In this document: positions 17,224-36,923 of the stretch, one piece after another | Layout: each line of letters opens with the position of its first letter | Position numbering within the stretch: position 1 is the first letter of the stretch | Assembly (NCBI GenBank): GCA_049792755.1 | Contig: JBARBF010000024.1 | Coordinates: forward strand, 5,675 to 69,674 | Length of the DNA: 64,000 bases | Origin: Bacteroidales bacterium | GTDB taxonomy: Bacteria > Bacteroidota > Bacteroidia > Bacteroidales > VadinHA17 | Reading direction: 5' to 3' | Program-made: the position numbers and the translations under genes | Notes under the pieces: generated by a model | The model's input: only the letters and a program-made list of their open reading frames with translations | The model's database searches: none | Told to the model about the DNA's origin: nothing

Positions 17224-17378
17224 GAGACAGGGGAGATTGAGATTTGTTCATTAAAATCACCTTTTTTCGAACGCTTCAGGAAATAATTTCCTGTGGTTCC
17301 GCCGCTCAATACCTTATGTACTTTTGCGATTATTGGCTTTTTCTTATATTTGTTCTGACTACCAAATAATTTATCAAA

Positions 17379-18029
17379 ATGCCAGTTTTTACAAGAACAA
17401 CCAAGAACCTGATTATCAAGATCGATGAGTTCTTTGATGATATAGATCTCGGACTTCTGGTTTTCAGAGAAGGTATAAAAGCATATCTGAATAAAGATAT
17501 GGATGCATTCATCAGACACCTTCAAAAAGTTGATAATCTTGAGAACAATGCTGACAGACTTCAGCGGGAAATTGAAAATGAGATGATTACTCATTCAATT
17601 TTGCCACAGCACAGGTCAGAGGTCAGTACTCTCATAGATGAACTCGATGAAGTTATTGATGCACTGAAAAGCTCACTTAATGAAATTTATATAGAAATGC
17701 CCGATATCCCTTCATCACTTAATAAAAATATAATTAGTCTTACTGAAACTTCTGTCAGCGCTGCTGAAGAACTGATACCTGCAGCAAGGGCATATTTTAA
17801 AGCTCCATATACCGTTAGGGAAAAGTTGCTAAAGGTCTATTATTTTGAAAGTGAGACCGATAAGCTGTCGTTAAAAACAAAAAAGATCATTTTTAAGGAA
17901 ATGAACGAACTGGATCTTGCACATAAAGCCCATCTGAGATATATAATCCATCATATTGAAAATGTATCAGATCTGGCCCAGAAAGCCGCAGATCTTCTCT
18001 CAGGAATGGCGATTAAGATTGTGATGTAA
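17379..18029 (+). CDS. DUF47 (PhoU-like, TIGR00153) phosphate-transport accessory protein
   Basis: 216-aa all-helical protein with an E..AD...R motif (LENNADRLQREI), immediately upstream of a PiT transporter. This is the conserved DUF47-PitA pairing. Confidence 0.8.
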   Translation: MPVFTRTTKNLIIKIDEFFDDIDLGLLVFREGIKAYLNKDMDAFIRHLQKVDNLENNADRLQREIENEMITHSILPQHRSEVSTLIDELDEVIDALKSSLNEIYIEMPDIPSSLNKNIISLTETSVSAAEELIPAARAYFKAPYTVREKLLKVYYFESETDKLSLKTKKIIFKEMNELDLAHKAHLRYIIHHIENVSDLAQKAADLLSGMAIKIVM

Positions 18030-18035
18030 CTTGTC

Positions 18036-18156
18036 GCTGGGTGCTGGGTTCTGGGTGTTGGTTGAAAAGATAAAAGTCAAAGGTAAAAAGATCAAAGTAA
18101 AGAGTCGTAAATACCGGAAAACAGAAACAAGAAACAAGAAACGAGAAACGAGCAAC
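18036..18156. repeat. Two degenerate heptamer arrays in the DUF47-PiT spacer
   Basis: gctgggt gctgggt tctgggt gttggtt (18036-18063) and cagaaac aagaaac aagaaac gagaaac gagcaac (18122-18156), separated by an A-rich aaag-type tract. Confidence 0.8.
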
Positions 18157-18204
18157 ATTTAATAAACAAATTAAAACAATTCACTTGTTGAAATTATTTA
18201 AGTA

Positions 18205-19449: not shown

Positions 19450-19548
19450 GATTATTCTAAGGGAGATATTAACCCCCATGTATTCCCCCTGTGAGAGGGA
19501 AAAAATCTTACTGTTTTAATAGAATAATAATAAAAATCACAGAATTTT

Positions 19549-19579
19549 CTCCCCCCTGGGGGAGATGCTGCGAATCAGC
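19549..19579. terminator. GC-rich hairpins between convergent pitA and DPP III genes
   Basis: ctcccc-cctg-ggggag (19549-19564) and gctg-cgaat-cagc (19567-19579). A further ttccc...gggaa hairpin lies near 19480. Confidence 0.35.
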
Positions 19580-19636
19580 AGAGGGGGTTCTCTCATCAAC
19601 CAACTTTGCATTTCGGAGTGTATGGGACGCCAAATA

Positions 19637-21598
19637 TTAAAGAAAGGAATAATTTTTTCCATAGTACAGCATCTGTCCGAGGTAATCATCCACATATTCG
19701 ACTTTTACATCGGTTATTCTACCGTTTTTATTATATACCGGTAAAAGTCTGGGGTTAACAAAACCTGTATACGGTGCGAGGTTAAGCTTTTCGTAACGTT
19801 CCAGGATCTCAGCATGATGACCAGGGTCAACCTTTACTCCATAGTTTTCAATTATTACCTTCCCATTTTCATAATCACCTTCCGATTTAATTCGTTGAAT
19901 CTCCCTTAGTAATTCCCCAAATAGATTCCTTAGCTTGAGATAATCATTTATTCTTACATAGGTTTTGCCTTCTTTCCTGAATAATTCGATAACATTTCCT
20001 GCTCTGCCATGCTCATAGACCCAATGAGATACTGCAGAACGGTTTCTCATATGTGCCTCCTCAATATCTTTTCCCGGATTTATCCTTACAATCTGAGTAA
20101 TTAAACCGTTCCTGATATATGAATCGTGTGAAGCTTTTGCTGCGTCCTCATGTGGAAGCAGACCAAGTTCTATTAATTTTTTATCCATCATATAGTATAA
20201 AGCAAAAAGATCTGCCCGTGCTTCTTCAAGAGGTGAAGCATAACTCTTAAGCGCATTGGGATGGGTACCTTTTGCCAGCTTGCCGCTTGCATGGCCCACG
20301 CATTCATGGAGATCGGTATGTAAAGCTTCAGCCAATGATCCGTAATTTTTTATCCTGTCCACTTCAGACCGATCGGCAGCAAATTCTTCCAGGAAACCAT
20401 TTCCCTTTGAAGTGATATCATATGCATTTGCTATATTTGACAGTGTAACTGATTTTGATCCAACCTCTTTCCTTATCCAGTTAGCATTGGGAAGATTAAT
20501 CCCCAGCGGCGAAACCGGATAACAATCACCTCCCAGCATAGCAACATTGACAACTTTTGCGGCGACACCTGTAACTTTCTTTTTTTTGTATTGTGGTTGA
20601 AACGGAGAATTATCCTCAAACCATTGGGAATTGGCTGCAATGATTCTTGTTCGCTTGGTGGCTTCCAAATCGGTATAATCTACAATTGCTTCCCATGTTG
20701 CCTTCATTCCCAAAGGATCATTGTAGGTTTCTATAAAACCGTTATTATAATCCACTTCAGGTCCGCTATCCTGTGCCCATAACACGTTAAAATCATCCCA
20801 TATTTTAAGATCCCCTGACTTATAAAAGTCAACAAGCAGTTTTAATTCTTTCTTCTGCATTTCAGATTCTGCGACTATTATTGCTTTTTCAATCCACATT
20901 ATTATCTGATCTATTGCAGCTCCATAAAGACCCCCTGATCTATAGACTTCTTCACTAATTTTTCCATCTTTCTTTGCAACTTTGGAATTAAGTCCCAATG
21001 AGACAGGGCATTGGTCTTTCGGATCAATTTTGGCTGAATAGAAAGATTCAACTTCTTTCTGATTTATATTTTCATAGAAGTTAATAACTGATTCTGCAAT
21101 CATGTCAGAACCTTCTCTTTTCTCTACCTTTCGTCCAAAGAGTTTTTCATCAAAAATAACGGGGGAAAGGATGGATATAAGCTCGTCTTTTGTCTGCCCA
21201 ATGGCCAGAGGAAGTTTTTCCTGGTCAGTTCCATTAATCAGACAACCAAAGTAACTTTCTGTAAATCGGGGTATTAATTTATCATTTGAATAATGATGAT
21301 GAATTCCATTTGAAAACAAAACTCTTTTTGAGTAAACCACGAAAGCAATGTATTCATCTAACGATTTGTCACCTGAATAATTTTCCAGTATAGCTTCAAT
21401 GGTTTTCCTTATCTTCAGATTAAACCTGAAGTTCTGATCCCATAAAATATCTCTCCCTGAAAGAGCCGCCTGACTGAGATAATAAATGAATTTTTTTTGC
21501 TGAATAGTCAGGAATTCAAATCCCGGAAGTTCATACCTGAGCACCCTGATATCTTCAAATTGTTCTACAAAATATTCAAAGTCGTCAAATTTCATCAT
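19637..21598 (-). CDS. Dipeptidyl-peptidase III (peptidase family M49)
   Basis: HECVGH (HExxGH) and EEARAD (EExxAD/E) are the two M49 zinc-binding motifs. 653 aa. Confidence 0.85.
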   Translation of the reverse strand: MMKFDDFEYFVEQFEDIRVLRYELPGFEFLTIQQKKFIYYLSQAALSGRDILWDQNFRFNLKIRKTIEAILENYSGDKSLDEYIAFVVYSKRVLFSNGIHHHYSNDKLIPRFTESYFGCLINGTDQEKLPLAIGQTKDELISILSPVIFDEKLFGRKVEKREGSDMIAESVINFYENINQKEVESFYSAKIDPKDQCPVSLGLNSKVAKKDGKISEEVYRSGGLYGAAIDQIIMWIEKAIIVAESEMQKKELKLLVDFYKSGDLKIWDDFNVLWAQDSGPEVDYNNGFIETYNDPLGMKATWEAIVDYTDLEATKRTRIIAANSQWFEDNSPFQPQYKKKKVTGVAAKVVNVAMLGGDCYPVSPLGINLPNANWIRKEVGSKSVTLSNIANAYDITSKGNGFLEEFAADRSEVDRIKNYGSLAEALHTDLHECVGHASGKLAKGTHPNALKSYASPLEEARADLFALYYMMDKKLIELGLLPHEDAAKASHDSYIRNGLITQIVRINPGKDIEEAHMRNRSAVSHWVYEHGRAGNVIELFRKEGKTYVRINDYLKLRNLFGELLREIQRIKSEGDYENGKVIIENYGVKVDPGHHAEILERYEKLNLAPYTGFVNPRLLPVYNKNGRITDVKVEYVDDYLGQMLYYGKNYSFL

Positions 21599-24258: not shown

Positions 24259-24341
24259 GGTGTGAGGCGTGAGGTATGAAGTATGTGGTGTATTCAAAAC
24301 TTTTTACCGGTCGCCGGGAACCGCAAACCGCCAACCGGATC
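24259..24341. repeat. Two degenerate heptamer arrays between convergent ggt and NuoB-like genes
   Basis: ggtgtga ggcgtga ggtatga agtatgt ggtgtat (24259-24293) and ccggtcg ccgggaa ccgcaaa ccgccaa ccggatc (24307-24341). The second array reaches the stop codon of the minus-strand gene. Confidence 0.7.
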
Positions 24342-25095
24342 AACCAATCCCAACTAAATCCATTACACCATTAATAAATGTCAAAGGATGTACCGGATTA
24401 CCTGGTACATAAAGGTCAATATGATTTTTTTCAACAAATCTTCTGTCAAGAACCTGGCTACCTTCAAAGATACCACCGCTGATAGCATCAGTACCGGCAA
24501 GAATGATGATTTTAGGTGAAGGAGTTGCTTTATATGTAATCTCCAGAGCTTCAGCCATATTTTCAGTAAAGGGACCTGTTATCACTACTCCGTCAGCATG
24601 ACGGGGTGAGGCGACAAATTCTATACCATAACGGCCCATGTCAAAATTTACATTTGAAGTAGCTGCAAGTTCCATCTCACAGGAATTATCTCCTCCTGCT
24701 GACACCTCACGAAGCTTTAATGCGCCATTAAAAAATTTCCGTATTTCACTTCTTATTTGTGTCTCATCTATTCTGACAGGGTTTTTAACTCCGGGATTAA
24801 TAATTAATCCTTCACGACTGTTTACTGCAACACGGTAGTCATTTGTAAAAATTATCCTTTGAGGGAACTTAAAGTAACATTCTTTGCAGAATACACATTT
24901 TCCCATATCTATTGAACCTGCTTTACAATCAATGGCTTTAACAGGACACAATTCAGAAACGACTTTTATTTCTTCAGCAGTGATATCTTTTGAAATTAAA
25001 GGACGGCCCCTGAACAGGTTCGAAACTTTTTGTGTACGTAAATTATTGATATACTGCCGGCCGTGACTGGCTAATATTTTTATTTCTTTGAACAT
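24340..25095 (-). CDS. NuoB/HycG-like small subunit with N-terminal half-ferredoxin domain; proximal-cluster Cys mostly lost
   Basis: FVASPRHADGVVITGPFT is the NuoB/HycG core. Cluster motif positions read GGDNSCEME, AGTDAISGGIF and VPGNPVHP, versus canonical CxxC, GxCxxxGG and PGCPP. The N-terminus has ELCPVKAI...CVFCKEC. Confidence 0.8.
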   Translation of the reverse strand: MFKEIKILASHGRQYINNLRTQKVSNLFRGRPLISKDITAEEIKVVSELCPVKAIDCKAGSIDMGKCVFCKECYFKFPQRIIFTNDYRVAVNSREGLIINPGVKNPVRIDETQIRSEIRKFFNGALKLREVSAGGDNSCEMELAATSNVNFDMGRYGIEFVASPRHADGVVITGPFTENMAEALEITYKATPSPKIIILAGTDAISGGIFEGSQVLDRRFVEKNHIDLYVPGNPVHPLTFINGVMDLVGIG

Positions 25096-25119
25096 AATAA
25101 TAAACTGTCAAAAAATGAT

Positions 25120-26640
25120 TTATAAATCATGCCCGCAATAGCTCAGGTTAAAACTTTTGTTGCAGATCGGGAAGTCTGATATTTCCTGATTACGTACTGC
25201 GAGAGCAAGCGCCATCCAATTGTGGATTGAAGGATCTTTCACTTTGTAATGGTTTATATATCCATTTTTATCAGTTGCAGCCAGGTGGCAAATTTCACCC
25301 CTCCATCCTTCTACCATTGAAATCGCAAAACGATCGGGTCTTAATATATAATTATAAACCGGCATCCTGATGTCACCGGTTTTTTCACGCCAGATTTTGA
25401 TAAGTTCCTGAATGATTTTCACCGATTCACCGGCTTCCAGAACTCGCAAAAGGCCACGGGCAAGTACATCACCAGTTTCAAGTATTATAGGTTTTGATGA
25501 ATATTTTTTATAGTATTGAAACGGATGGGTATGACGTACATCGCGCTGAATACCGCTGGATCGGGCAGCCTGACCTACTATTCCAATTGCCAGACCCTGT
25601 TGTTTTGTCAGTATTCCGATATCATCAAACCGAGATAGAACACTTGGCAGTGAATAGATACGATCGGCAATCTTACTAAACCGTTTGCCTGAATTACCGA
25701 GAATTTTTAATATCTCATCAGCAATATCATTATCAAGGGGGCAATTGGTGCCACCTGGTCGGATAAGGCCCTTGCCGAAGCGATTGCCACACCAAAGCTG
25801 AGTGGTATTGATTATTGTGGTTCTGAGCGCTTCGCAGGCTACTTGCCCCAGCTGATAAGCAACATCACCACATAAAGCGGCAGTATCGCCGATATTAACT
25901 GCCAGCTTTTCCAATTCCAGAGCAATACATCGCTCTACCTGTAATTTTTCATCTGCTTCCATTCCACTTAACGACTCAATAAGCTGTGAATGAGCCAATG
26001 CGTGTCCAACTGATGAATCACCTGCTATGCTCTCCGAAAGTACACATCTTTGTAACGGAGTATTTTTTGTAATAAACAACTCTTCAATCCCACGATGCTG
26101 GTACCCTAGTTGAATTTCAAGATGCAGAACCTTTTCACCGTTACAGATAAACCTGAAATGACCCGGCTCAATTACACCGGCATGAACAGGCCCCACGCCC
26201 ACCTCATGCAATTCTTCACTCTCAATATTGTAGAAAGGATAATTATCCATAATCTTTGATTTATCTGTCCGGTAATGTGGATATCTCACGGGCTTCAGCC
26301 ATGGATGACCCTCGAAATCTACTTCTGAATTTTCATGAATCTCACGTTCAAAAATATGCATCTGAGGACATATCGGAGTAATAGATTTTATTCTTCGCTG
26401 ATCATTTTTTAGTTCATGTGCAAATATTGCAATACTACTATTATTATCATCTGCTATGCAACAATAAAATTTCAGTTTATCAGATGACACTAAAGCGTAG
26501 TAAGCAATACAATGTTTTGCTTCATCTTTTAAAAAACCGACAACCTGATCATAAAATTTATCATATTTTAAAACAGGTATTTCATCAATTTCTATTGATA
26601 ATGAATTGTTTTTTATTTCAACATATGGTTTTTGATCCAT
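25120..26640 (-). CDS. NuoC-NuoD / HycE-like large-subunit homolog lacking NiFe-binding cysteines
   Basis: GPVHAGVIEPGHFRF and LGYQHRG are large-subunit/NuoD signatures, with an N-terminal domain of about 120 aa that is NuoC-like. The L1 position reads ESIAGDSSVGH. The C-terminus reads ...NLSYCGHDL-stop. Confidence 0.85.
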   Translation of the reverse strand: MDQKPYVEIKNNSLSIEIDEIPVLKYDKFYDQVVGFLKDEAKHCIAYYALVSSDKLKFYCCIADDNNSSIAIFAHELKNDQRRIKSITPICPQMHIFEREIHENSEVDFEGHPWLKPVRYPHYRTDKSKIMDNYPFYNIESEELHEVGVGPVHAGVIEPGHFRFICNGEKVLHLEIQLGYQHRGIEELFITKNTPLQRCVLSESIAGDSSVGHALAHSQLIESLSGMEADEKLQVERCIALELEKLAVNIGDTAALCGDVAYQLGQVACEALRTTIINTTQLWCGNRFGKGLIRPGGTNCPLDNDIADEILKILGNSGKRFSKIADRIYSLPSVLSRFDDIGILTKQQGLAIGIVGQAARSSGIQRDVRHTHPFQYYKKYSSKPIILETGDVLARGLLRVLEAGESVKIIQELIKIWREKTGDIRMPVYNYILRPDRFAISMVEGWRGEICHLAATDKNGYINHYKVKDPSIHNWMALALAVRNQEISDFPICNKSFNLSYCGHDL

Positions 26641-26642
26641 GA

Positions 26643-28073
26643 TTATGGCTGTTTAATAAAAATAGAAATACTCTGGTTAATTAGATCTACCAGGAAGGGA
26701 GGCTGATAAAAACACATAATGATCACAACAACAAGCAATAAAAATTGACTGACTGTCTCAACCGGTTTGATTTTTTCCGGGGACTTCTGATTGTTTACGC
26801 TCCGGGGATTTGAAAATACAATATGCATAATTCTTGTACTCATGGCATAAATTACAAAGCACAGCAGCAATATAACAACACAAAGTACAAACCAGTGGTT
26901 TTTGAAAACCATTGCCTTAAATATCATAAACTTACTAATAAACAACCCTGAAGGCGGGATGGCAAGAATACAGAACATTCCTGCAATAAGTACTAACGCA
27001 CCCGCTGGATAAAGTTCCATATATCTGCCGGTTTCATCTAATTTGAACGTATGCAGTACTCTTGAAAGTTGTCCCATTTGATAAAAAAGACTTGATTTGG
27101 ATAACGAATGAAGTACAAGTAAAAGAAATGCCGCGAAATACCCGGCGCCACCTACTCCTATCGCAATGGCTACCAGTCCCATATTTTCCAGACTTGAATA
27201 AGCAAGCATTCTCTTAAGATGTTTTGCTTTAAGCATATAACCGGCAGCTATCAATAAAGACATTAATCCAGAAAGGATCAGCACATTATTCATAAAACCT
27301 AATATTGAGGAGGAAGAAAACATGGAATAAACTCTGAAAATAGCCAGAAAACCGACGTTCATTAAAGCGGTTGAAATCAAAGCACTGATTGGAGGTGGAG
27401 CGACTGAGTGAGCATCAATTGTTACTGTATGCATCGGGAACAGCCCCATCTTTGTGCTAAATCCAACTAAAACAAATAAAAATGCAATTTTCAGATACAT
27501 CGGGTTAGCTTCATTAATAATATTGGCGATTGATGTAAATGACAGATTAGCAGCATCTCCGCGGCCATAAATAAATCCTAAAAATAATATGCCTAAATAA
27601 GCCAGGGCAATACCGGTAGAACAGATAAACACATACTTCCATGTTGCTTCCAATGCTATTTCTGTGCGATCATGATATATCAGGGCCGCAACGGCCAGGG
27701 TTGTCGCTTCTACAAAAATCCACAGGACAGTCATTCCATTTGCCATATATGCACCTGACATAAAAGTTATTAAACCAATCAATGCTGCGTGATAAATATT
27801 ATATTTCTTCACTTCATCTGTGGCCGCGTATATAAATCCATGATAAATAGTCGGCAAGGTCAAAATTGACAAAACTGACATAAGCAACACACCAGCGCTG
27901 TTAAAAGTGAAATAACTTAATTCGGTTTTGTTTAAATTGTTCCAGCAATATATTGTAAAACAAATATGTACCAACGCATAGCTGATTGTTATAATCTTAG
28001 TTATAGTCTTATTTTTTAGTAAGATTATTGAGATAACTGAAAAAACTGAAATAATAAAAAATAATAAAAGCAT
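26643..28073 (-). CDS. HyfF/NuoN-like Mrp-antiporter-type membrane subunit
   Basis: 476-aa polytopic protein. Motifs typical of proton-conducting antiporter-like subunits: FLFVLVGFSTKMGLFPMHTV, MLAYSSLENMG, HSLSKSSLF. Confidence 0.8.
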   Translation of the reverse strand: MLLLFFIISVFSVISIILLKNKTITKIITISYALVHICFTIYCWNNLNKTELSYFTFNSAGVLLMSVLSILTLPTIYHGFIYAATDEVKKYNIYHAALIGLITFMSGAYMANGMTVLWIFVEATTLAVAALIYHDRTEIALEATWKYVFICSTGIALAYLGILFLGFIYGRGDAANLSFTSIANIINEANPMYLKIAFLFVLVGFSTKMGLFPMHTVTIDAHSVAPPPISALISTALMNVGFLAIFRVYSMFSSSSILGFMNNVLILSGLMSLLIAAGYMLKAKHLKRMLAYSSLENMGLVAIAIGVGGAGYFAAFLLLVLHSLSKSSLFYQMGQLSRVLHTFKLDETGRYMELYPAGALVLIAGMFCILAIPPSGLFISKFMIFKAMVFKNHWFVLCVVILLLCFVIYAMSTRIMHIVFSNPRSVNNQKSPEKIKPVETVSQFLLLVVVIIMCFYQPPFLVDLINQSISIFIKQP

Positions 28074-28079
28074 ATTCTA

Positions 28080-28694
28080 TTAATCTTTTAGCATGGTTAA
28101 TTCGTTAGTGTGCGGTCTTAGTCGTAATCCAAAAAAACCAAGTATTAACACTCCTACAAATATGTCAAGCAATATTCCAATGTTGATCAGCATAGGCATT
28201 TTATTGCCGACAGCAAGAGAAAACATAAAAACTGAATTTTCAATTATTAAAAACCCTATCAGATGTGAGATTATCAGTTTGTGAGTAACAATAAGCAATA
28301 GTCCTGTGAAAAGAGTAAAAAGAGCAATAGCCATATAAATGGTATTTACATAATTATTTATCAGGGAGTTTGCCAGAAGAACACTTATCAATAATGCGAA
28401 AATTGATAAAATAATTAAATAAAATCCGGGCATAGCCTGCCTGTGAATTTTTGATACACCTGACCGGTTAATTATCCTAAAAAGCAGGTATGGAATTAAA
28501 ATTGTTTTAAAAATCAAGGTCTCGGAAGCTATAAACAGAAGATTTGCAGTATTAATTTCTTTAAGCTCAAATAATGCAATTCCACATAGTAATAATCCCT
28601 GGACCCCAATAAGATTTATATATAGAACCAGTCTTTCCGCTGAGCAAAAATAAATAAGGGTAATTGCAAATAATACTATCAGGTAATTTACCAT
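28080..28694 (-). CDS. HyfE-like small membrane subunit
   Basis: 204-aa protein with about 6 TM helices, between the NuoH-like and HyfF-like genes as in hyf-type operons. The assignment is mostly positional. Confidence 0.6.
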   Translation of the reverse strand: MVNYLIVLFAITLIYFCSAERLVLYINLIGVQGLLLCGIALFELKEINTANLLFIASETLIFKTILIPYLLFRIINRSGVSKIHRQAMPGFYLIILSIFALLISVLLANSLINNYVNTIYMAIALFTLFTGLLLIVTHKLIISHLIGFLIIENSVFMFSLAVGNKMPMLINIGILLDIFVGVLILGFFGLRLRPHTNELTMLKD

Positions 28695-28701
28695 ATTGTA
28701 T

Positions 28702-29613
28702 TTAAATAAATTTGTCAGTCAAAATTAAAATTATCACAAAAGCGATCCAGGCAATTGCAGAGATTGAAAGTATAAATTTTGGATTTTTATTCATTTTGTT
28801 TCTGGCCCTGAATGATTCAATCAGTCCGATGATCATGGCAAACACCACCTGAACTAACAGGAATAAAACAATCTGCAGAAATATGTTCCAGCTGGCCGGC
28901 ACAATAACATTATACATCAATGATCCATAAATTGCAAATTTCAGGTACGAACAAATATGAATTAATGCTTTATCAAAACCACTGTTATCCAGGATCATCA
29001 CTTCATGTATCATCGTGAGTTCGAGATGTGTTTTCGGGTCATCAACGGGTAATCTGCTGTTCTCGATCATGGCGATCTGAATAAACACATAAAATCCTAA
29101 TATACTGTATATCAATACATAATTATTTCCAGTAAGAAAGAAATGATTAAAGATATCTGAAAAGGAAGTAAACCCTGTAAGCATTGCAAAAGTAGCCAGC
29201 AGAATAAAAAAAGCCGGTTCAGCCAACATTGAGAAAAACGCTTCACGATTGGCTCCCATTCCCTCGAAACTGCTACCGGTATCAAGAGCAGCAAGAATAG
29301 TAATAAATTTCCCGAATGCGAGCAGATAAGAGAAGAAAACAAAATCTCCTTCAAATGAAATAATTGCATTTCGTTCTGCGAATGGGATTACCAGTAAAGC
29401 ACATAAAATAGCTGACAATGCAACAACTGGTGCTATCTGAAATATGATTCCTGTTGTTTTACTGAAAACACTTCCTTTTCTCATTAATACTCTTAAATCT
29501 TTGACAGGTTGAAGTATGCCAGGACCCTTACGACCTGAAAAAATGCTCTTTGTTCGTAATATAACACCTGGAAAAAAGAAAGCTGCAATTAAAATCAGAA
29601 CAAATCCCAGCAT
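28702..29613 (-). CDS. HycD/HyfC/NuoH-like membrane subunit
   Basis: 303 aa. N-terminus R(K)..GR.GPG.LQP..D (SGRKGPGILQPVKDL) and ENSRLPVDDPKTHLELTMIHE (the conserved NuoH/HycD loop). Confidence 0.8.
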   Translation of the reverse strand: MLGFVLILIAAFFFPGVILRTKSIFSGRKGPGILQPVKDLRVLMRKGSVFSKTTGIIFQIAPVVALSAILCALLVIPFAERNAIISFEGDFVFFSYLLAFGKFITILAALDTGSSFEGMGANREAFFSMLAEPAFFILLATFAMLTGFTSFSDIFNHFFLTGNNYVLIYSILGFYVFIQIAMIENSRLPVDDPKTHLELTMIHEVMILDNSGFDKALIHICSYLKFAIYGSLMYNVIVPASWNIFLQIVLFLLVQVVFAMIIGLIESFRARNKMNKNPKFILSISAIAWIAFVIILILTDKFI

Positions 29614-29615
29614 AA

Positions 29616-31610
29616 TCAGATAAGATTAAAATAGGTTAATATGAAAACAAGAAGCATAAAGACAAATGCATATAAAATGTAATGTTGTATCTGTCCGGTC
29701 TGCATTACTGCAATCCTTTTTAGAATAGTCGAGGACCAATCTATAGGTTTGTCTATCAGAAGCTTTTTGAATATATCGTCACTGTGCGACTCGAAGGACC
29801 TTTTCCCTGGAAATATTTCATCATCACGGATTTCTTCCATTATTTTTTTTGTCTGGAGCACTGGCTTCGCAAGATGGTTATAATTATAAGCATATGATGT
29901 TGCAGTATATTGTTGTCTGCTGCTTCCTGCAGTATAACCACAACCCCATGTGGGCTCAATGTCAATTTGCTTATTTTTAAGATGGAAATGCCTGTAAACG
30001 AGAAAAACAATAATTGTACAGACAAAAATGCCGCTTAGAATACTTATTTGTGTAAGGTTTTTTATGGAGGAATTTGCTACCAGATTTAAATCACTGATTC
30101 TGAATGACTGCGATACTATGTTAAACACAGGTTTCACAAATAATACTGACATTAGTCCTATCAGCATAATAAAAGCAATAGTGATAAATTGCGGAAAAAT
30201 CATCAATTTGCTTACTTCTTCAGCCCTTGATGCTTTTTCTGAACGCGGCTCGCCAAGAAATACTATTCCAAATGCTTTTGTAAAACAAAAAATTGCCAGT
30301 CCTCCTATCAGAGAGAGTCCGACAATGCTTGAAAGAAGAACTATGGATTGATATAAATTAGCCGACGACAGGCTTTTAAACATTCCAATATAGATGAGAT
30401 ATTCCGAGATAAATCCATTAAATGGAGGCAGACCACATATAGCCAATGAACCTATAAGAAAGAGAACTGAAGTATAAGGCATTTTTTTCATCAGTCCACC
30501 AAGTTGTTCTATGTTTCGCGTATGTGTGGCCTGATATACTGAGCCAGCATTGAAGAAAAGAAGTGATTTGAAAAGTGAATGGTTCATCACATGAAGTAAA
30601 CCTCCAACAAAGCCAAGCAGACTTAATGCGGTGTTATTTGTTGAAATACCAATCGTACCCACACCAATTCCGATACCTATGATTCCAATATTCTCAATGC
30701 TATGGTATGCCAGTAAACGTTTTAAATCGTGCTGAACGATGGCCATCATAACCCCAAGTACACCGGATATCAGCGAAACCGATAATATTATCATACCAAT
30801 TAAAAGTAGTTCGCTTTGTACCGACATAAGTACCCTTAAAATACCATATATGCCCATTTTTATCATGACACCTGACATAACTCCGGATACATGCGAAGGA
30901 GCTGCAGGGTGAGCCTCAGGGAGCCATGTGTGCATGGGAATAAACCCGGCTTTTATGCCAAATCCGATAAAGAAAAGAATAAAAAGCAATATATTAGAGT
31001 GATTCACAAAATATGATCCAAGGGCATCAAAACTCATTTTCCCGGTAGCTTTTCCGACAATCAAAAAGCTTATCAGGAGAAAAAACATGCCTACGTGCAT
31101 CTGGATAAAGTAACTGATACCCGTTTTCATAATAGTTCGGTCTTCAGCATCAAAAATTACCAGAAGGAATGATGAAAGGGCCATTAATTCCCAGACAATT
31201 AAAAAAGCCAGGCCGTCGCGGATAATAACTACCATCATCATGGAGAAATAAAGCCAGATGTATGAGAAGTAATGTATCGAAAAACTCAATGCATTTTTAC
31301 TCCGATAATATGGTTTCAGATATCCCCGGGCATAAAGAAACCCGGTAAATACAGTTATATTAATTAATACAATGAAGAATGCAGAAAGCTTATCGATTAT
31401 AAACATAAAGCTGTTTTGCAGGAAAGGCAATCCTGACTGTAGTTCAAGTATTTGTCTATCAGATGAAACCAGATCAATACACCATATTGAGGTCAACACA
31501 ATGCCACATACAAGCAAAAAAAGGCTATAGAAATACTTTAGAGACCTGGGGATAAAGAAAACAGGGAAGGTCAGAAGTAATAAAAGAAGAAAGTATAATG
31601 CGTTATTCAT
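29616..31610 (-). CDS. HyfB/NuoL-like antiporter-type membrane subunit
   Basis: 664-aa polytopic protein. GFGIKAGFIPMHTWLPEAHPAAPSHVSGVMSGVMIKMG, LLAYHSIENIG and HSLFKSLLF are characteristic of the NuoL/HyfB family. Confidence 0.85.
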   Translation of the reverse strand: MNNALYFLLLLLLTFPVFFIPRSLKYFYSLFLLVCGIVLTSIWCIDLVSSDRQILELQSGLPFLQNSFMFIIDKLSAFFIVLINITVFTGFLYARGYLKPYYRSKNALSFSIHYFSYIWLYFSMMMVVIIRDGLAFLIVWELMALSSFLLVIFDAEDRTIMKTGISYFIQMHVGMFFLLISFLIVGKATGKMSFDALGSYFVNHSNILLFILFFIGFGIKAGFIPMHTWLPEAHPAAPSHVSGVMSGVMIKMGIYGILRVLMSVQSELLLIGMIILSVSLISGVLGVMMAIVQHDLKRLLAYHSIENIGIIGIGIGVGTIGISTNNTALSLLGFVGGLLHVMNHSLFKSLLFFNAGSVYQATHTRNIEQLGGLMKKMPYTSVLFLIGSLAICGLPPFNGFISEYLIYIGMFKSLSSANLYQSIVLLSSIVGLSLIGGLAIFCFTKAFGIVFLGEPRSEKASRAEEVSKLMIFPQFITIAFIMLIGLMSVLFVKPVFNIVSQSFRISDLNLVANSSIKNLTQISILSGIFVCTIIVFLVYRHFHLKNKQIDIEPTWGCGYTAGSSRQQYTATSYAYNYNHLAKPVLQTKKIMEEIRDDEIFPGKRSFESHSDDIFKKLLIDKPIDWSSTILKRIAVMQTGQIQHYILYAFVFMLLVFILTYFNLI

Positions 31611-31741
31611 TAATTGTAATTAAGGTAATTTCGGATAAGTAATTTTATTTTTGTTTTAACAGATTTTTAAGGCAACTTCTTTTTAATTGTAACTGGTTTA
31701 AATTTAATGATTTGCAGAATTTAAATCCAATTCAACGGTCA

Positions 31742-31757
31742 TTTTACGAACGTAAAA
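31742..31757. promoter_or_regulatory. Perfect 16-bp palindrome upstream of the hyf-like operon
   Basis: ttttacg-aa-cgtaaaa, 132-147 nt upstream of the HyfB-like ATG (31610). Function unknown. Confidence 0.3.
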
Positions 31758-31859
31758 ATAAAAAATAATATCTCTGTCTGACCTTTCTGCAGCGAATTTG
31801 ACGTAAGCATTTGATTGAACAGTGTTAACCCACTCACGATTACGTACAAAACTAAATGC

Positions 31860-32594
31860 CTATTCGTTAACCGGTAAAGAGCCGGAAAAAATAATAGGTT
31901 CCGATGATTTCTTATTTTTTAATCGGAAAATAAAATGTTTGTCCTGATAGACCGATTCTAATAATCCGAAATATATTAAATCGGCGATAATATTCTCAGC
32001 TGCACTCCTTGGCAGGTATACCATTCTGCAGAACCTTAAGATAGAGATTGACGGATTTAATTCAAGATAATCCAGGAGCTTCTTCACCTTTTCACTATAT
32101 TCCATCAGTATACCACTATGATAAATTTTCTTTTTCCAAACCTTCAGATGAACAGTAGTAGCGAGAATATTTTCATCTTTTACCCGGATATAAGCCGACC
32201 AGTTATTCTGCTCTGTCTTAGCAAAATAAGGAATATGTGAGCCTTTGGGGATTATAACTTCAAGTACCGTTTTGCCATCGACTATCCATCTTTTTGATTC
32301 AAACACAATTTCGGGTTTACAATACATCCCGGCAGCTGCCTGAACCATATAAAATTCTTCATCAGAGTGCACCCCGGCTATGTTACCGTTATCTTTGACT
32401 CCGATAAGCAGTTTTCCGCCATCGGTATTAGAAAAAGCAACAAGAGTTTTAGCAATTTTCCTGGAGTCGGAGATTTCGAATTTAAAGTCCAGCTGCTGAT
32501 GTTCGCCTTCCTTTATTAATCTTTTTATATAAGAGTTCGGTCTCTTTTGAAGCACTTTTATTGTTCCTGAATGATACTTTGCCATCAATATCAA
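31860..32594 (-). CDS. AlbA_2 (Schlafen-like) domain protein with C-terminal winged-helix
   Basis: EGEHQQLDFKFEISDSRKIAKTLVAFSNTDGGKLLIGVKDNGNIAGV is the AlbA_2 / 'divergent AAA' core. The C-terminus LLDYLELNPSISILRFCRMVYLPRSAAENIIADLIYFGLLE looks like wHTH. Confidence 0.7.
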   Translation of the reverse strand: MILMAKYHSGTIKVLQKRPNSYIKRLIKEGEHQQLDFKFEISDSRKIAKTLVAFSNTDGGKLLIGVKDNGNIAGVHSDEEFYMVQAAAGMYCKPEIVFESKRWIVDGKTVLEVIIPKGSHIPYFAKTEQNNWSAYIRVKDENILATTVHLKVWKKKIYHSGILMEYSEKVKKLLDYLELNPSISILRFCRMVYLPRSAAENIIADLIYFGLLESVYQDKHFIFRLKNKKSSEPIIFSGSLPVNE

Positions 32595-32795
32595 AATTAA
32601 TTAATCTGTTTGCAGGTGCTCCATCAAAATAATAACAGGACAATATTACGAATTCCTCAAATACAAAATTCCCGGAATGCCCGATAAACTGTTCTATTTA
32701 TTAACATACCAATAATAGTCTTATCATTGTATTTCTGTCTAATTTTCAGTAATTATGCTCTGCCATTTTTAATTCCTCTTCATATATTATTACTC

Positions 32796-35700
32796 ATGAA
32801 ATCACCATTCAAATTCCTCGATTCGTATACAAAAGAAGATCGTGAAATATTTTTCGGACGTGAAAAGGAAATAGAAGAATTGTATCGTCGTCTTTTTGAA
32901 AGCAATGTACTGCTGGTCTACGGAGAATCCGGAACCGGAAAGTCGTCAATTATCAATTGCGGTTTAGTTAATAAGATTAATGACACTGAACATCTCACTA
33001 TCTATATTCGTCGATCAGATAACGTACTTGAAAGTCTTTCTGAAGCGATACATGTTCTCCTCAGGGAATCTTCTCCCCGACAACTGCTTACGGCTCTTTT
33101 GTTTAAAAAAGCTCTGAGGGAGATATCTGAAGATATTCATAAACAGCTAATCTTTATCTTCGATCAATTTGAAGAGTTATTTATTTTCGGAACAAAAGAA
33201 GAAAAGCAGAGCCTTATTCAGGTTCTGAAAATCCTGACAGAATCCGATCTGAATTGCAAATTTATATTTATTATCCGCGAGGAGTTTTTTTCTAATGTGG
33301 CTGAGTTTGAGAAACATATACCCGACTTCCTGTCCAACAGGATGCGTATTGAAAGAATGGACAGAACCAATGCCATAGGAGCAATAAAAGGATCATGCAG
33401 TGTTAATGACATTCAGGTTGAGGATGGATTTGCCGAAAATCTTCTGAAGAAACTCAATCCCGAAAGCCCCGGAATTGAGCTGACCTGGCTTCAGATTTTC
33501 CTTGACAAGATCTTCAATTTGGCGGTTTATGATATTAAACCTGATAATGACACAACTAAGCCTATTGTCTTTACAACAGGTTTAGTTGAAAAAACCGGAG
33601 ATGTCTCTGATTTACTCGGTAGTTTTCTTGATGACCAGATCTCATTATCGCCAAAACCCGACACAACTCTGGCAATATTGAAATCGTTTGTCTCATACAA
33701 AGGTACGAAACGGAAGCTTAATCTGGCTGATGTTAAAGATTATGCAACTACTCTGGGGGAATATGTCAAAGAGAAAGATGTTCTCGAAATAATAAGGTCC
33801 CTGGTTAATTTAAGAATTTTGCGGGATAAGGATGAGAACGGATTCTATGAGCTCCGGCATGACTCACTTGCTGCTAAGATCTTTGAAAAAATATCTGCAG
33901 CTGAAATTGAAATTCTTGAGGTCAGACAGTTTATTGAAAGTGCCAATTATTTCTGGAAAAAGCACGGTGTGCTGCTCTCTGAAGAAGATCTTAAATACAT
34001 CAGTCCATTCGAGAAAAGATTATCACTTTCTGATGACCTCACAAGTCTTATTGAATTAAGCAGAGAAAAATTCAGTACGTCAAGGAACAGAAGAAGAAAT
34101 ATATTAGTTTCAGGAGGTACAGTAATTATTCTATTGCTCTCAGCTTTTTCTGTCTGGGCTTTAAAGGAGCGTAACAGGGCTGAGAATCTTAGTATCAAGG
34201 TACTGGCTGAAAAGAATAATTTACTGGCTTCAAATGTAGCAATACACGATCCGACGAAAGGATTAAGACTGGCGGAATATGCTAATTCTCTTGATTCAAC
34301 CAATCATAGTATTATAAATAACATAAAACAGATTTATTCAGATAATATATTTTATACCTTGATTGCCAGACAGAGTGATGCATTTGCAAAACAGGAAGAT
34401 GCAATAAGTACTGTTGCATTTTCCCCTGACAGCAAATTTATTCTTACCGGTTCAGGAGATGCAACTGCAAGACTATGGGACCTGAATGGAAACTGTATTA
34501 AGATTTTTATTGGCCATTCAGGATATGTGAATTCTGTTGCTTTTTCCCCCGATGGCCAGTCAATTCTGACCGGTTCCTCTGATCGTTCCGCCCGTCTCTG
34601 GAATATAAACGGGAAGGTAATCGCGGATTTTAAAGGACACGGTATGGCAGTTAATTCTGTCGCCTTTTCTCCTGATGGCAAGGAAATAATTACCGGTTCA
34701 AATGATAAAACTGCCCGTCTGTGGGATCTGAACGGGAATGTAATCATGGAATTTAAGGGTCATACAGCGTCAGTAAATTCAGTTGCCTTTTCGCCCGACG
34801 GTCAGCATATTCTTACCGGATCATCAGATTCAACTGCCAGACTCTGGAACAAAGAAGGAAAACAACTGAAAGTTTTAGAAAAACACCTGAATATTATAAC
34901 TACTGTTACTTTTTCCCCGGATGGGAAAGAGATGCTTACCGGATCGAACGATAAAACAGTAAAGCTATGGGGCTTTGACGGAACATTAGTAAGGGTTTTT
35001 ACAGGGTTCCCGGGAGAAGTTAATGATGCGGTCTTTTCACCCGACGGGAAAAAGATACTTATCGGTGCAAGTGCCGGCTATGCTGTTCTCCTTGATCTGA
35101 ACGGCAATGAAATTAAAGAATTCAAAGGGCATACGATAAAAGTGAGAGCAGTTGCCTTTTCGCCGGATGGCTCCAAAATAGTGACAGGATCAGCAGATTG
35201 CACTGCAAAACTCTGGTACCTGAATCAAAATCTTAATCAGGTTTATAATGGACATACCGGGAAAATTACCTCTGTTAAATTCTCAAAAGACGGAAAAGAA
35301 TTTCTAACAGCTTCATCAGATAAAACAGTACGACTCTGGGATATCGACGGAAATACTATTAAAATATTCAAGGGACATAAATATGGAGTTAATGATGTTG
35401 CATTTTCCCCTGATGGCCAAAAGGTACTTACCGCATCAGACGACTGTACCGCTATGTTATGGGATCTTCAGGGAAATCTGATAAAGATTTTTTCAGGACA
35501 CAAGATGGGGGTAACCAGCGTCGCTTTTTCACCTGACGGCCAGAAAATACTTACAGGATCACAGGATGCAACTGCCCGGCTCTGGGATCTCAGCGGTACT
35601 ATGCTTATGATTTTCAGGGGGCATAATTCAAAGGTGAATTCCGTTGCATTTTCGCCAGATGGTAAAACAATTCTGACCGGATCGAACGACTACTCAGCCA

Positions 35701-36923
35701 GGTTATGGGATCTCAACGGAAATATTCTTACAGAATTGAGGGGACAGTTGAGTGCAATAAATTCCGTGGCATTCTCGCCTGACGGGCTAAGCTTTTTAAC
35801 CGGATCATTTGGTTCTGATCCATCTGCCAGATTATGGGATATTAAAGGAAACTTAATCAGAGTTTTTAAAGGACATACAACTTCAATTTTCTCAGTGGTT
35901 TTTTCACCTGATGGTAAAAAAATCCTTGCCGGCTCAGCTGACCAGACAGCAATCCTATGGGATATGAACGGAAATATTGACCAGGTTTTTTCAGGATATA
36001 AATCATATGTGAATTCCGTCGGATTTTCACCTGACGGACAAAGAATTCTGTTAGGGCTTGATAATGGAAGTGCACGGTTATATCCTGTTAAAATGCCTTA
36101 CCGTAATTTTAATAAAATAAATAAATATGAAAAACTGACTTCATTTGATAAACTTCTTTATAATATAACCGATATCAACACTATAAGAGCATCTGAAGAT
36201 GAGAACTCACTTCTGCAAGCTTCTGACTATTATATAAATGAAGCTTTACAGAGTGGGCTAAGTGAAAAAAACAAGTACATTAGTACTTCAATAGATCTGT
36301 ATAACAAGTTGTTATTGAAAAATCCCGGGAAAAAGGAATACCTTTTCAGGCTGCTGATGGCAAGTGTATATAGTTATGCAACAATTCCGGCTGATAAGAC
36401 TAAAAAAGAAATAGAAAAAATAAATGAAGAAATTATGGGACTCACTTCAATAGATGACCTTACCCTGGCCGGTTATGCTTACTGCTTAATCTGTACGAAA
36501 AATGATTTGAAGAATGACCCTCTGGGAATCCCCGACTGCTTCCTGGCTATCTGCCAAAAATTATTAAATGACCCTGACCTTCAGCAAGCCGAGAGGAAAG
36601 ACATCAGCAGGTGGTGTACTCTTTTGTCTCTGGATTTTATCTTGAAGAAGGAATTCTCTCAGGCTCTTCAGTTTATTAAGACTGCAGAACTTTCAGACAC
36701 TTCCAATACTGAGATGCGCATTCTACTTCCAATAATATATATATTTAACGATCAGTATGATAGAGCAGAAACAATAATTAATGAATTTAAAAATAAAGCA
36801 TTGACAGGTATAGATAACTTTAAAACATATAAAGAGGCTTATAAAAATGCAATTGAATTATGTGAAGAAAGTTCAAAAACAAATCCAGACTTAGCAAAAG
36901 CAAAAGGCCTCTTAACAGATTGA
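32796..36923 (+). CDS. STAND-type P-loop NTPase - TM helix - 14x WD40 - alpha-helical (TPR-like) tail
   Basis: Start chosen at MKSPFKF; the track ORF begins at 32727 with an implausible hydrophobic leader. SPFKFLDSYTKEDREIFFGRE lead-in, Walker A GESGTGKSS, Walker B LIFIFDQFEELF, hydrophobic helix ILVSGGTVIILLLSAFSVWAL (about nt 34098-34164), 14 repeats of a 41-aa unit V.SVAFSPDG..ILTGS.D.TARLWDL.G, then about 310 aa of helical sequence. Confidence 0.85.
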   Translation: MKSPFKFLDSYTKEDREIFFGREKEIEELYRRLFESNVLLVYGESGTGKSSIINCGLVNKINDTEHLTIYIRRSDNVLESLSEAIHVLLRESSPRQLLTALLFKKALREISEDIHKQLIFIFDQFEELFIFGTKEEKQSLIQVLKILTESDLNCKFIFIIREEFFSNVAEFEKHIPDFLSNRMRIERMDRTNAIGAIKGSCSVNDIQVEDGFAENLLKKLNPESPGIELTWLQIFLDKIFNLAVYDIKPDNDTTKPIVFTTGLVEKTGDVSDLLGSFLDDQISLSPKPDTTLAILKSFVSYKGTKRKLNLADVKDYATTLGEYVKEKDVLEIIRSLVNLRILRDKDENGFYELRHDSLAAKIFEKISAAEIEILEVRQFIESANYFWKKHGVLLSEEDLKYISPFEKRLSLSDDLTSLIELSREKFSTSRNRRRNILVSGGTVIILLLSAFSVWALKERNRAENLSIKVLAEKNNLLASNVAIHDPTKGLRLAEYANSLDSTNHSIINNIKQIYSDNIFYTLIARQSDAFAKQEDAISTVAFSPDSKFILTGSGDATARLWDLNGNCIKIFIGHSGYVNSVAFSPDGQSILTGSSDRSARLWNINGKVIADFKGHGMAVNSVAFSPDGKEIITGSNDKTARLWDLNGNVIMEFKGHTASVNSVAFSPDGQHILTGSSDSTARLWNKEGKQLKVLEKHLNIITTVTFSPDGKEMLTGSNDKTVKLWGFDGTLVRVFTGFPGEVNDAVFSPDGKKILIGASAGYAVLLDLNGNEIKEFKGHTIKVRAVAFSPDGSKIVTGSADCTAKLWYLNQNLNQVYNGHTGKITSVKFSKDGKEFLTASSDKTVRLWDIDGNTIKIFKGHKYGVNDVAFSPDGQKVLTASDDCTAMLWDLQGNLIKIFSGHKMGVTSVAFSPDGQKILTGSQDATARLWDLSGTMLMIFRGHNSKVNSVAFSPDGKTILTGSNDYSARLWDLNGNILTELRGQLSAINSVAFSPDGLSFLTGSFGSDPSARLWDIKGNLIRVFKGHTTSIFSVVFSPDGKKILAGSADQTAILWDMNGNIDQVFSGYKSYVNSVGFSPDGQRILLGLDNGSARLYPVKMPYRNFNKINKYEKLTSFDKLLYNITDINTIRASEDENSLLQASDYYINEALQSGLSEKNKYISTSIDLYNKLLLKNPGKKEYLFRLLMASVYSYATIPADKTKKEIEKINEEIMGLTSIDDLTLAGYAYCLICTKNDLKNDPLGIPDCFLAICQKLLNDPDLQQAERKDISRWCTLLSLDFILKKEFSQALQFIKTAELSDTSNTEMRILLPIIYIFNDQYDRAETIINEFKNKALTGIDNFKTYKEAYKNAIELCEESSKTNPDLAKAKGLLTD
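34390..36090 (+). repeat. Coding tandem repeat: 14 WD40 units of about 123 nt
   Basis: The (A/V)FSPDG core recurs 14 times at intervals of 41-43 codons. Adjacent units share most positions. This also explains the antisense ORF 34352-34747. Confidence 0.9.

Follow-up and report, generated by a model that had tools for sequence, protein, structure and literature searches.

A 64,000-nucleotide stretch of contig JBARBF010000024.1 from a Bacteroidales bacterium, referred to here as the window, carries six head-to-tail open reading frames (ORFs) on the minus strand (positions 24340 to 31610) that very probably encode an Fe-S-depleted, six-subunit member of the Ehr (energy-converting or Ech-hydrogenase-related) family. 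Judged from residue-level alignments, the encoded complex can bind neither a NiFe center nor a proximal cluster, holds at most one [4Fe-4S] cluster, and is predicted not to be a hydrogenase. The former NiFe pocket is remodeled and strongly conserved rather than simply dead. The explanation that we favor as a whole, an Fe-S-depleted Ehr complex working as a redox-independent ion translocator, has in our estimation about an even chance of being correct.

The Ehr family was reportedly named in Geobacter by Coppi in 2005 and generalized by Marreiros et al. in 2013. The Ehr complex of Geobacter sulfurreducens corresponds to GSU0739-0745 (PMC6349859, PMC7894505, PMC12361115), and Ehr large subunits are described as group-4-type homologs without the NiFe cysteines (PMC6349859, PMC7304191, PMC7894505, PMC10284858, PMC10432482). 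The window operon has in common with the Geobacter complex a large subunit lacking the CxxC NiFe motifs, a small subunit, and NuoH-like, HyfE-like, and NuoL-like antiporter subunits.

Operon organization and subunit families

An earlier note, made from the DNA letters alone, had described a tight minus-strand operon of six hydrogenase- and complex I-like genes, and both the ORF coordinates, with intergenic gaps of 2, 7, 6, 2, and 24 nucleotides (nt), and the Pfam and NCBIfam matches agree with that description and with the subunit families proposed (Table 1). When the proteins were ranked against solved structures, those of the Hyc complex (FHL-1, formate hydrogenlyase of Escherichia coli; 7Z0S) came first for four of the five subunits having solved relatives, including the HyfB-like protein (HycC, 7z0s_C, E = 9e-69), and Pyrococcus Mbh came next for most subunits. 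The NuoB-like domain of the small subunit matched MbhJ first (6cfw_J, E = 4e-21) and HycG second (7z0s_G, E = 6e-18). The HyfE-like subunit gave only chance matches and no homolog in a phmmer search of solved structures; its orthologs show weak matches to PF00420 (NuoK).

The six genes follow one another as do hyfB-C-(D)-E-F-G-H-I of formate hydrogenlyase-2 (FHL-2; Hyf, a group 4a [NiFe] hydrogenase) of E. coli and Pectobacterium, the subunit roles of which are summarized in PMC13645896. On this assignment, the HyfC/NuoH anchor, the HyfE/NuoK-like subunit, and the two antiporter-like subunits make up a complex I-like membrane arm, and the NuoC-NuoD and HycF-HycG fusions make up the peripheral arm. 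Unlike Hyf and Hyc, the window has no HyfA/HycB, HyfD, FdhF, hyp, or hycI; the NiFe ligands are gone, the counterparts of HyfH and HyfI are fused, and one of three clusters is kept. For comparison, 105 related loci were gathered from reference genomes, metagenomes, and look-ups of exact proteins. The order B-C-E-F-G-HI is found in the window and in every sufficiently long locus among the 105, nearly every one of which has the fused small subunit of approximately 250 amino acids (aa); a second HyfB-like gene is present in some of them. The earlier note had called for such a survey of ortholog neighborhoods, and its outcome is this conserved order without a recurrent redox partner.

A remodeled NiFe pocket in the large subunit

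All four NiFe cysteines are replaced in the large subunit, EhrL, in phmmer alignments to solved structures. In the N-terminal motif (L1), RVCGICGFAH of HycE pairs with SIAGDSSVGH, one Cys having become Ala and the other Ser. In the C-terminal motif (L2), DPCYSC of HycE pairs with NLSYCG, so that the Cys columns hold Ser and Gly and one Cys is shifted by a single column. The same replacements had been read by eye in the earlier note. An alignment of 31 diverse family members contains no conserved Cys anywhere in the large subunit, and the quinone-site residues of Nqo4 are not kept either, as the Y87 column is Gly and the H38 column is not conserved. L1, L2, and the four-Cys proximal cluster that characterize group 4 [NiFe] hydrogenases are thus all lacking. 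The same holds for two marks of complex I (NDH-1), namely, the NuoB ligands of cluster N2 and the His and Tyr that NuoD contributes to the quinone site. Complex I also has NuoA, NuoJ, and three antiporter-like subunits, together with NuoEFG in its 14-subunit form, in contrast to the six genes and two PF00361 subunits of the window.

The neighborhoods of the former cysteines rank among the most conserved positions of the protein in the 31-member alignment. In the beta1-beta2 loop, G150, P151, P159, and F164 are invariant and H153, A154, G155, I157, E158, G160, F162, and R163 are at least 90% conserved; L1 has an invariant G207 and a D208 that is at least 90% conserved; and L2 combines invariant S496, S500, G503, and D505 with N494, F497, L499, Y501, and L506, each at least 90% conserved. 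Nearly all of the best 150 representatives share the patterns E-x-x-[ASC]-G-D-[ST]-x-x-x-H at L1 and NKSF[ND]LSY[CSA]GxDL at the C terminus, and L2 is unchanged in loci of Acidobacteriota and Myxococcia. The earlier view that the catalytic site is dead is therefore correct in that all four NiFe cysteines are gone, but it does not describe a pocket that seems to have been rebuilt and then held under strong conservation.

The stop codon follows directly after L2, and the earlier note was right that there is no protease-cleaved extension. This is not a sign of loss, however: the four-Cys relatives P0230, P0242, P0247, and P0252 also terminate directly after CxxCxD[LR], and because these nearest four-Cys relatives end in the same way, the missing extension is best regarded as ancestral rather than as degeneration.

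A fused ferredoxin domain and two lost clusters in the small subunit

The earlier note had reported no HycF/NuoI ferredoxin. There is indeed no separate gene, but a HycF-like domain with one four-Cys site is fused into the 251-aa small subunit. A profile built for the domain from 20 family members matched HycF (7z0s_F) from residue 1 with E = 3e-19, followed by NuoI/TYKY, MbhN, and MbsN. The domain retains four of the eight Cys of the 2x[4Fe-4S] pattern, namely, C50 from the CP of motif 1 and C67, C70, and C73 from the CxxCxxC of motif 2; Phe takes the place of the fourth Cys of motif 2. Ferredoxins of the standard 2x[4Fe-4S] type bind one cluster through the fourth Cys of motif 1 together with the CxxCxxC of motif 2. 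By the ligand assignments in ferredoxins and Nqo9, the retained cluster may be the equivalent of N6b, which a check of the literature did not confirm. C50, C67, C70, and C73 are invariant in approximately 80 sequences from both of the clades described below, and the other four Cys are missing from all 43 sequences of the clade to which the window belongs.

The proximal cluster has been lost from the HycG/NuoB-like domain, where GGCNGCE, GACxxxGG, and PGCPP of HycG and MbhJ pair with GGDNSCE, GTDAISGG, and PGNPV. The proximal-cluster columns are accordingly D136, C139, D203, and N233, the residues that had been picked out by eye in the earlier note, and three of the four cysteines are replaced. 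C139 itself is not conserved; it is replaced by A, T, S, or V in several orthologs and therefore seems dispensable. In none of the residue-level alignments do four Cys fall at the NiFe columns or at the proximal-cluster columns, a placement that would have contradicted the earlier note.

Family membership, clades, and selection

EhrL has more than 8000 close homologs, all of approximately 506 aa. An exhaustive search of representatives clustered at 50% identity returned 4690 matches at E <= 0.001 and 546 at E <= 1e-30; the more distant of the 4690 include NuoD of complex I and genuine hydrogenases, and genuine four-Cys relatives turn up only at about 33 to 36% identity. A neighbor-joining distance tree, without support values, was built from 98 large subunits, with four four-Cys relatives as the root; in it, the window protein lies inside the NiFe-less clade and apart from those four. 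It also carries the Ehr family-wide signature [AS]GD[ST]...H / NKSFNLSYxGxDL. Both results bear out the assignment to an Ehr-like class in the earlier note.

Two clades can be told apart by their cluster ligands. Clade A, to which the window belongs, comprises 43 small subunits with D-[C/A/T/S/V]-[D/E]-[N/A] in the proximal columns and a ferredoxin domain with four Cys only; its large subunits are at least approximately 44 to 48% identical to that of the window. In contrast, clade B, the majority type of Ehr (37 sequences from Acidobacteriota, Myxococcia, and many unassigned metagenome contigs), has C-C-C-C in the proximal columns and a full eight-Cys ferredoxin domain, so that the proximal cluster and both ferredoxin clusters are kept. 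Clade A is monophyletic in the tree, and its sister is a low-GC group with CCCC. Because clade A is monophyletic, the ligands of the two clusters appear to have been lost together and once. The loss of the proximal cluster seems, on this evidence, to be confined to one Ehr clade and not general to Ehr. Clade A includes Bacteroidales, Flavobacterium, Cyclobacteriaceae, Chryseolinea, Draconibacterium, Rikenella, and a high-GC subgroup with D-V-E-A; it is a mainly Bacteroidota subfamily of Ehr that diversified widely after the clusters were lost. The nearest relatives of the window are Bacteroidales metagenome-assembled genomes (MAGs) from peat, fen, and permafrost, for example SPRUCE_188, the large subunit of which is 88% identical.

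The pocket motifs are identical between the three-cluster and the one-cluster clades, and the role of the pocket is therefore likely to be independent of the electron wire. In comparison with locus L001, the ratios of nonsynonymous to synonymous substitution rates (dN/dS) of the six genes are 0.087, 0.073, 0.058, 0.077, 0.16, and 0.13 (dS 0.39 to 0.66), the value of 0.16 being that of EhrL. These ratios show all six genes to be under purifying selection.

Ehr as such was already known. What is apparently new is the joint loss of two of the three clusters in a large monophyletic clade, although the original Ehr papers may mention the loss. Also new are the fusion of HyfH and HyfI throughout the family, in which the site for a single cluster is invariant, the conservation of the pocket regardless of the wire, and the synteny with SulP, carbonic anhydrase (CA), and DabAB genes.

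Several individual loci depart from the common pattern. A contig labeled as a Candidatus Scalindua MAG (JANLHC010000142, positions 1 to 12309) carries two tandem Ehr-like operons. In the first, the small subunit has 196 aa, lacks the HycF-like domain, and keeps all four proximal Cys, and the motifs of the large subunit are ERVSGTSTFSH...NKSFNLSYSGCNM; the other operon belongs to the Fe-S-depleted type, like that of the window. In some high-GC representatives (P0181 and P0222), the large-subunit ORF continues into the ferredoxin-like N-terminal domain of the small subunit, which reflects either a fusion or a miscalled stop. At L002:5023-9992, in a long-contig MAG, three ORFs stand in place of the HyfB-like gene and three in place of the HyfF-like gene, the result either of assembly frameshifts or of a pseudogenized copy.

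Conservation of the membrane arm

The antiporter-like machinery had been described as intact in the earlier note, and the canonical ion-path residues are indeed retained at or near 100%. In the HyfB-like subunit, E141, K220, K251, H340, H344, K348, and E403 are conserved in 51 or 52 of 52 family members; E122, K208, and K326 of the HyfF-like subunit are conserved in 70 of 70 sequences; and E152 and D177 of the HyfE-like subunit are invariant in 66. The HyfC-like subunit has the longest list, with R123, E124, E132, E184, R187, D191, D192, H196, E198, H203, E204, D209, E266, and R271 invariant in 62 sequences. These include the whole set of charged residues from E184 to D209 in the loop between transmembrane helices (TM) 5 and 6, where the window protein has His at two positions occupied by acidic residues in HycD and MbhM. 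Two further observations concern the HyfF-like subunit. The TM8 Lys typical of antiporter-like subunits is never present, being replaced by N, S, T, or G (N239 in the window), and at the TM12 position 66 of 70 members have Glu, whereas the window has Lys (K381).

A possible redox-independent mechanism

We hypothesize, as the simplest mechanism, that the complex is an Mrp-like, gradient-driven cation/proton translocator that works without electron transfer, a tentative proposal by analogy to which we give somewhat less than an even chance. With no metal site and no electron wire, redox chemistry could not be coupled to transport, and the complex would act as a secondary, gradient-driven translocator in the manner of Mrp. 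Charge would be relayed along the membrane arm by the Lys/Glu/His chain of the HyfB-like and HyfF-like subunits and by the invariant HyfC loop. The peripheral arm may have been kept as a cytoplasmic cap or gate of the HyfC half-channel, with the polar pocket (E158, D208, S209, S500, Y501, and D505, together with the His/Asp/Glu-rich HyfC loop) as a protonation site or a ligand-gated site, and the remaining cluster could be structural or could serve as a sensor of redox state or O2. In the cell, the complex would serve ion and pH homeostasis and, in related lineages, would energize SulP-type anion uptake, probably of bicarbonate. Since the pocket motifs are the same in both clades and the one-cluster clade is without the wire, the core activity of Ehr would need no delivery of electrons to the pocket. 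The working analogy is the Mrp (Mnh/Pha) antiporter, which is redox independent and shares with the window proteins the MrpA/MrpD pattern of TM5 Glu, TM7/TM8 Lys, and TM12 Lys/Glu, as well as a NuoK-like subunit. Mrp differs in being a seven-subunit complex (MrpA-G) without a peripheral arm, whereas the window has NuoH-, NuoC/D-, and NuoI/B-like subunits and no recognized MrpE/F/G in the operon.

A number of points weigh against an Mrp-like translocator. Mrp-type antiport works without homologs of NuoH, NuoB, NuoC, NuoD, or NuoI, which are here as conserved as the membrane arm, and no recognizable MrpE/F/G-type subunits of an Na+ module are found in Ehr. Conservation as strict as that of the pocket and of the four-Cys cluster is more reminiscent of a catalytic or ligand-binding site than of a passive cap. 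The SulP, CA, and DabAB linkage on which the proposed link to anion uptake draws is absent from the window, as judged by tblastn, and from its Bacteroidales sub-branch, and where SulP genes do lie beside Ehr, their NCBIfam scores are under the cutoffs for DauA, SulP, and BicA alike. Reviews still give its function as unknown (PMC10284858, PMC10432482).

That the peripheral homologs are as conserved as the membrane arm, when antiport needs none of them, is a hint that the pocket may bind a ligand or carry out real chemistry. A further reading, unlikely as we judge it, sees in the Fe-S-depleted Ehr clade a natural "electron-free" complex I-type machine, in which invariant Asp, Ser, Tyr, Glu, and His residues would form a new NuoH/NuoD/NuoB coupling chamber that is driven by a nonredox event and coupled to the antiporter-like subunits. 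The driving event could be protonation, or the binding of an inorganic-carbon species or chemistry on it.

It is rather improbable that the complex is still a redox-driven pump, in which reduced ferredoxin or another donor passes electrons through the single [4Fe-4S] cluster to an acceptor in the pocket (quinone, a sulfur compound, or other), as in Mbs/Mbx or the 11-subunit NDH-1. Such a pump would account for the invariance of the four ligands of one cluster in both clades, and the ancestor was probably redox active, given that sister Ehr lineages retain the three-cluster wire. The organism also encodes a two-subunit 2-oxoacid:ferredoxin oxidoreductase of the POR/IOR type (positions 51084 to 53304, minus strand), which indicates a ferredoxin-using anaerobe, and the Ehr subunits of Geobacter increase on formate (PMC7894505). 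However, both neighbors of the retained cluster in the wire have been lost, the proximal columns being D, x, D/E, and N/A with even the last Cys not conserved, and the large subunit offers neither a conserved Cys nor the His38 and Tyr87 quinone ligands of Nqo4. By the geometry of complex I, the N2-adjacent cluster would lie more than 20 Å from the pocket, past the physiological tunneling distance.

The genomic surroundings likewise provide no redox partner. A Pfam sweep of the window, which covered 41 other ORFs of at least 150 aa and six intergenic ORFs of 60 to 149 aa and omitted one ORF overlapping a longer one, found no hyp, hycI, fdhF, or nuoEFG; the earlier statement that fdh and hyp/hycI genes are lacking thus stands. 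Beside the approximately 100 operons, 141 flanking proteins were scanned for clade A and 145 for clade B, and the 25 most frequent families listed include nothing that could act in redox chemistry or maturation as a conserved partner, such as formate dehydrogenase, NuoEF, or hyp.

Pyrococcus Mbs/Mbx (6U8Y) and Mbh (6CFW) belong, like the window complex, to the complex I superfamily and combine a hydrogenase-type module with Mrp-like subunits, and Mbs/Mbx is likewise a nonhydrogenase derivative. Mbs and Mbh are ferredoxin driven, with three [4Fe-4S] clusters, 13 to 14 subunits, and a dedicated Na+ module (PMC8165549). In contrast to the three-cluster, ferredoxin-accepting module of Mbs/Mbx, the window complex has one four-Cys site left, and the match of EhrL to MbsL (E = 4.5e-14) is far weaker than that to HycE (E = 3e-34). 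The likeness to the partial losses in Mbx/Mbs suggested in the earlier note is therefore a loose one.

An inorganic-carbon machine, rated equally improbable, would carry out vectorial CO2 hydration or bicarbonate handling in the manner of NDH-1MS/CupA or DabAB, with the chemistry in the pocket or in a recruited CA-like partner and coupled to the proton path. This possibility arises from gene linkage. In a Cytophagales-type sub-branch of clade A, 7 of 10 operons are linked to SulP, often together with DUF2490, a beta-CA, or DabAB. The six Ehr genes of L009 are followed, after a 29-nt gap, by DabA, DabB, DUF2490, and SulP (12310 to 19656), and those of L098 (12279 to 15814) and L099 (12282 to 15819) by DUF2490, SulP, and a small protein with weak similarity to Pro_CA, with 4-bp overlaps and a bona fide beta-CA nearby. 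SulP follows the Ehr genes in L025, L100, L101, and L102. In L068, from clade B, DabA, DabB, and a PF00361 gene (34 to 4977) precede the Ehr genes and a SulP-STAS-PII gene (12333 to 14285) follows them, with overlapping junctions. No paper was found in our literature search on an Ehr-DAB or Ehr-SulP link, nor on the structure or function of Ehr.

Where SulP genes adjoin genes for Na+/H+ antiporters, the pairing has been taken to mean bicarbonate uptake powered by an Na+ cycle (PMC8115632), and DAB provides a precedent for a PF00361 subunit able to power nonredox CO2 hydration (PMC13144422). DabAB/MpsAB and NDH-1MS (CupA) are alike in using a PF00361 proton-path subunit for reactions besides the reduction of quinones or protons. 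Invariant His, Asp, Glu, and Ser are also abundant in the pocket and in the HyfC loop. On the other side, NDH-1MS is redox driven, DAB is a two- or three-subunit complex (PMC13144422), and the window complex has no CA-like subunit. The pocket is unlike any known CA metal site, with no conserved Cys2His or His3 set, and neither the window nor the surroundings of the other Bacteroidales-type operons contain a CA-like gene, DabA, or SulP. DabAB, where present, is a complete system alone, and the scores of the neighboring SulP proteins, below the three cutoffs, count here as well.

Finally, the genes could be what is left of a hydrogenase operon in decay, or the complex could be a nontransporting scaffold or sensor. 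The stepwise loss of cofactors (NiFe and then two clusters) and the fragmented HyfB- and HyfF-like genes of L002 might point this way, but the idea is most improbable and is effectively refuted by the data on selection and conservation: dN/dS is 0.06 to 0.16 for six genes, there are more than 8000 close full-length homologs, the gene order is kept across phyla, the transport residues are invariant, and the replaced motifs are the best-conserved segments.

Implications for Ehr complexes

Ehr is widespread and has been noted repeatedly in genome papers since 2005. That a large, long-lived clade kept the transport residues and the pocket and dropped the wire argues that the core activity of Ehr is not electron transfer. 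The question is now narrower and can be tested in culturable Bacteroidota such as Flavobacterium and Cyclobacteriaceae, and the synteny with SulP, CA, and DabAB suggests low CO2, alkaline pH, and Na+ as conditions under which to look for phenotypes. For the complex I field, this would be a natural case of a coupling chamber working, or being reused, without redox chemistry. If the electron-free reading were true, Ehr would represent a third type of energy-coupled inorganic-carbon/anion uptake beside NDH-1MS and DAB, and the 20-year-old question of its role would be answered. Homologs of EhrL carry automatic names such as "Ni,Fe-hydrogenase III large subunit" and "NADH-quinone oxidoreductase subunit C"; metabolic reconstructions should list Ehr genes neither under hydrogenases nor under subunits C/D of NADH dehydrogenase.

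Features of the window and genomic neighbors

TABLE 1 Coordinates of the Ehr-type operon, its upstream region, and the kdp genes in the window
Feature	Position	Strand	Evidence or remark
HyfB/EhrA-like antiporter-like subunit, NuoL/MrpA/HycC homolog, 664 aa	29616-31610	-	PF00361 (Proton_antipo_M) E = 5e-53; NCBIfam hydrogenase 4 subunit B E = 3e-163
HyfC/HycD/NuoH-like membrane anchor, 303 aa	28702-29613	-	PF00146 (NADHdh) E = 1e-28; HycD 7z0s_D E = 1e-21
TM5-6 coupling loop of HyfC-like subunit	28987-29067	-	Part of the 303-aa ORF
HyfE-like (NuoK-related) small membrane subunit, 204 aa	28080-28694	-	NCBIfam hydrogenase 4 membrane subunit E = 1e-12, under cutoff (weak)
HyfF-like antiporter-like subunit, NuoN/MrpD type, 476 aa	26643-28073	-	PF00361 E = 6e-40; NCBIfam hydrogenase 4 subunit F E = 1.5e-67
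EhrL, NuoC-NuoD/HycE-like large subunit, 506 aa, without NiFe ligands	25120-26640	-	PF00329 (Complex1_30kDa) and PF00346 (Complex1_49kDa); HycE 7z0s_E E = 3e-34
Beta1-beta2 loop VGPVHAGVIEPGHFRF of EhrL	26149-26196	-	Conservation in 31 diverse family members
Remodeled L1 motif ESIAGDSSVGH (ancestral RxCGxCxxxH)	26002-26034	-	Aligned to E. coli HycE, MbhL, Nqo4
Remodeled L2 motif NKSFNLSYCGHDL, stop codon directly after	25123-25161	-	Aligned to HycE ...DPCYSC
HycF-HycG (HyfH-HyfI) fusion small subunit, 251 aa	24340-25095	-	PF01058 (Oxidored_q6, NuoB) E = 2e-19
HycF/HyfH/NuoI-like ferredoxin domain, residues 1 to ~118 of the 251-aa protein	24742-25095	-	Domain profile match to HycF
One-cluster motif CP...CxxCxxC	24865-24948	-	Within ferredoxin domain
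HycG/HyfI/NuoB-like domain, residues 119 to 251, without proximal cluster	24340-24741	-	PF01058; MbhJ and HycG alignments
Upstream intergenic region, probable Bacteroidetes-type promoter	31611-31859	-	Conserved block in 8 Bacteroidales loci
-7-like box TATTTTTA	31753-31760	-	Leaves a leader of ~135 nt
KdpA	11485-13170	-	
KdpB-like P-type ATPase	9377-11467	-	
KdpC	8770-9342	-	
KdpD sensor kinase	5166-7838	-	
kdp response regulator	4470-5153	-	

The region upstream of the operon contains a single block that is conserved across eight Bacteroidales loci, at approximately 31745 to 31775, and this block holds TATTTTT[G/A], which corresponds to the Bacteroidetes -7 promoter consensus TAnnTTTG. Further, partly conserved stretches lie in the leader (31611 to 31745). 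An Rfam search found no riboswitch or known RNA at gathering scores in the leader or the rest of the window, with one match at chance level. A scan for sigma-70 promoters and intrinsic terminators gave counts no better than those of shuffled sequences, the models of the tool omitting Bacteroidetes promoters.

The clade A operon is autonomous; no Pfam family occurs more than three times among 141 nonredundant proteins within 6 kb of it. In clade B the sole recurrent neighbor is a gene of approximately 230 aa with HTH_17 and PTS_EIIA_2 (PtsN-like) domains that overlaps the first Ehr gene (L055:2270-2971, with equivalent positions in L058, L065, L074, L080, L083, L090, and L092). This candidate dedicated regulator, which is absent from the clade of the window, hints at control by ion or nutrient status.

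The window also encodes a complete kdp locus (4470 to 13170, minus strand), of which a HAMP protein is a further part, approximately 11 kb from the Ehr operon. It was considered as a functional partner and rejected, as the synteny is found in close relatives only. Upstream of the operon and divergent from it is a gene for a 1398-aa nSTAND1 NTPase with approximately 14 WD40 repeats (32727 to 36923, plus strand), which is kept in L002, L006, and L011 and is adjoined by a gene for an AlbA_2/Schlafen-domain protein (31860 to 32594). An IS200/Y1-type transposase gene lies further along the window (60635 to 61078, plus strand).

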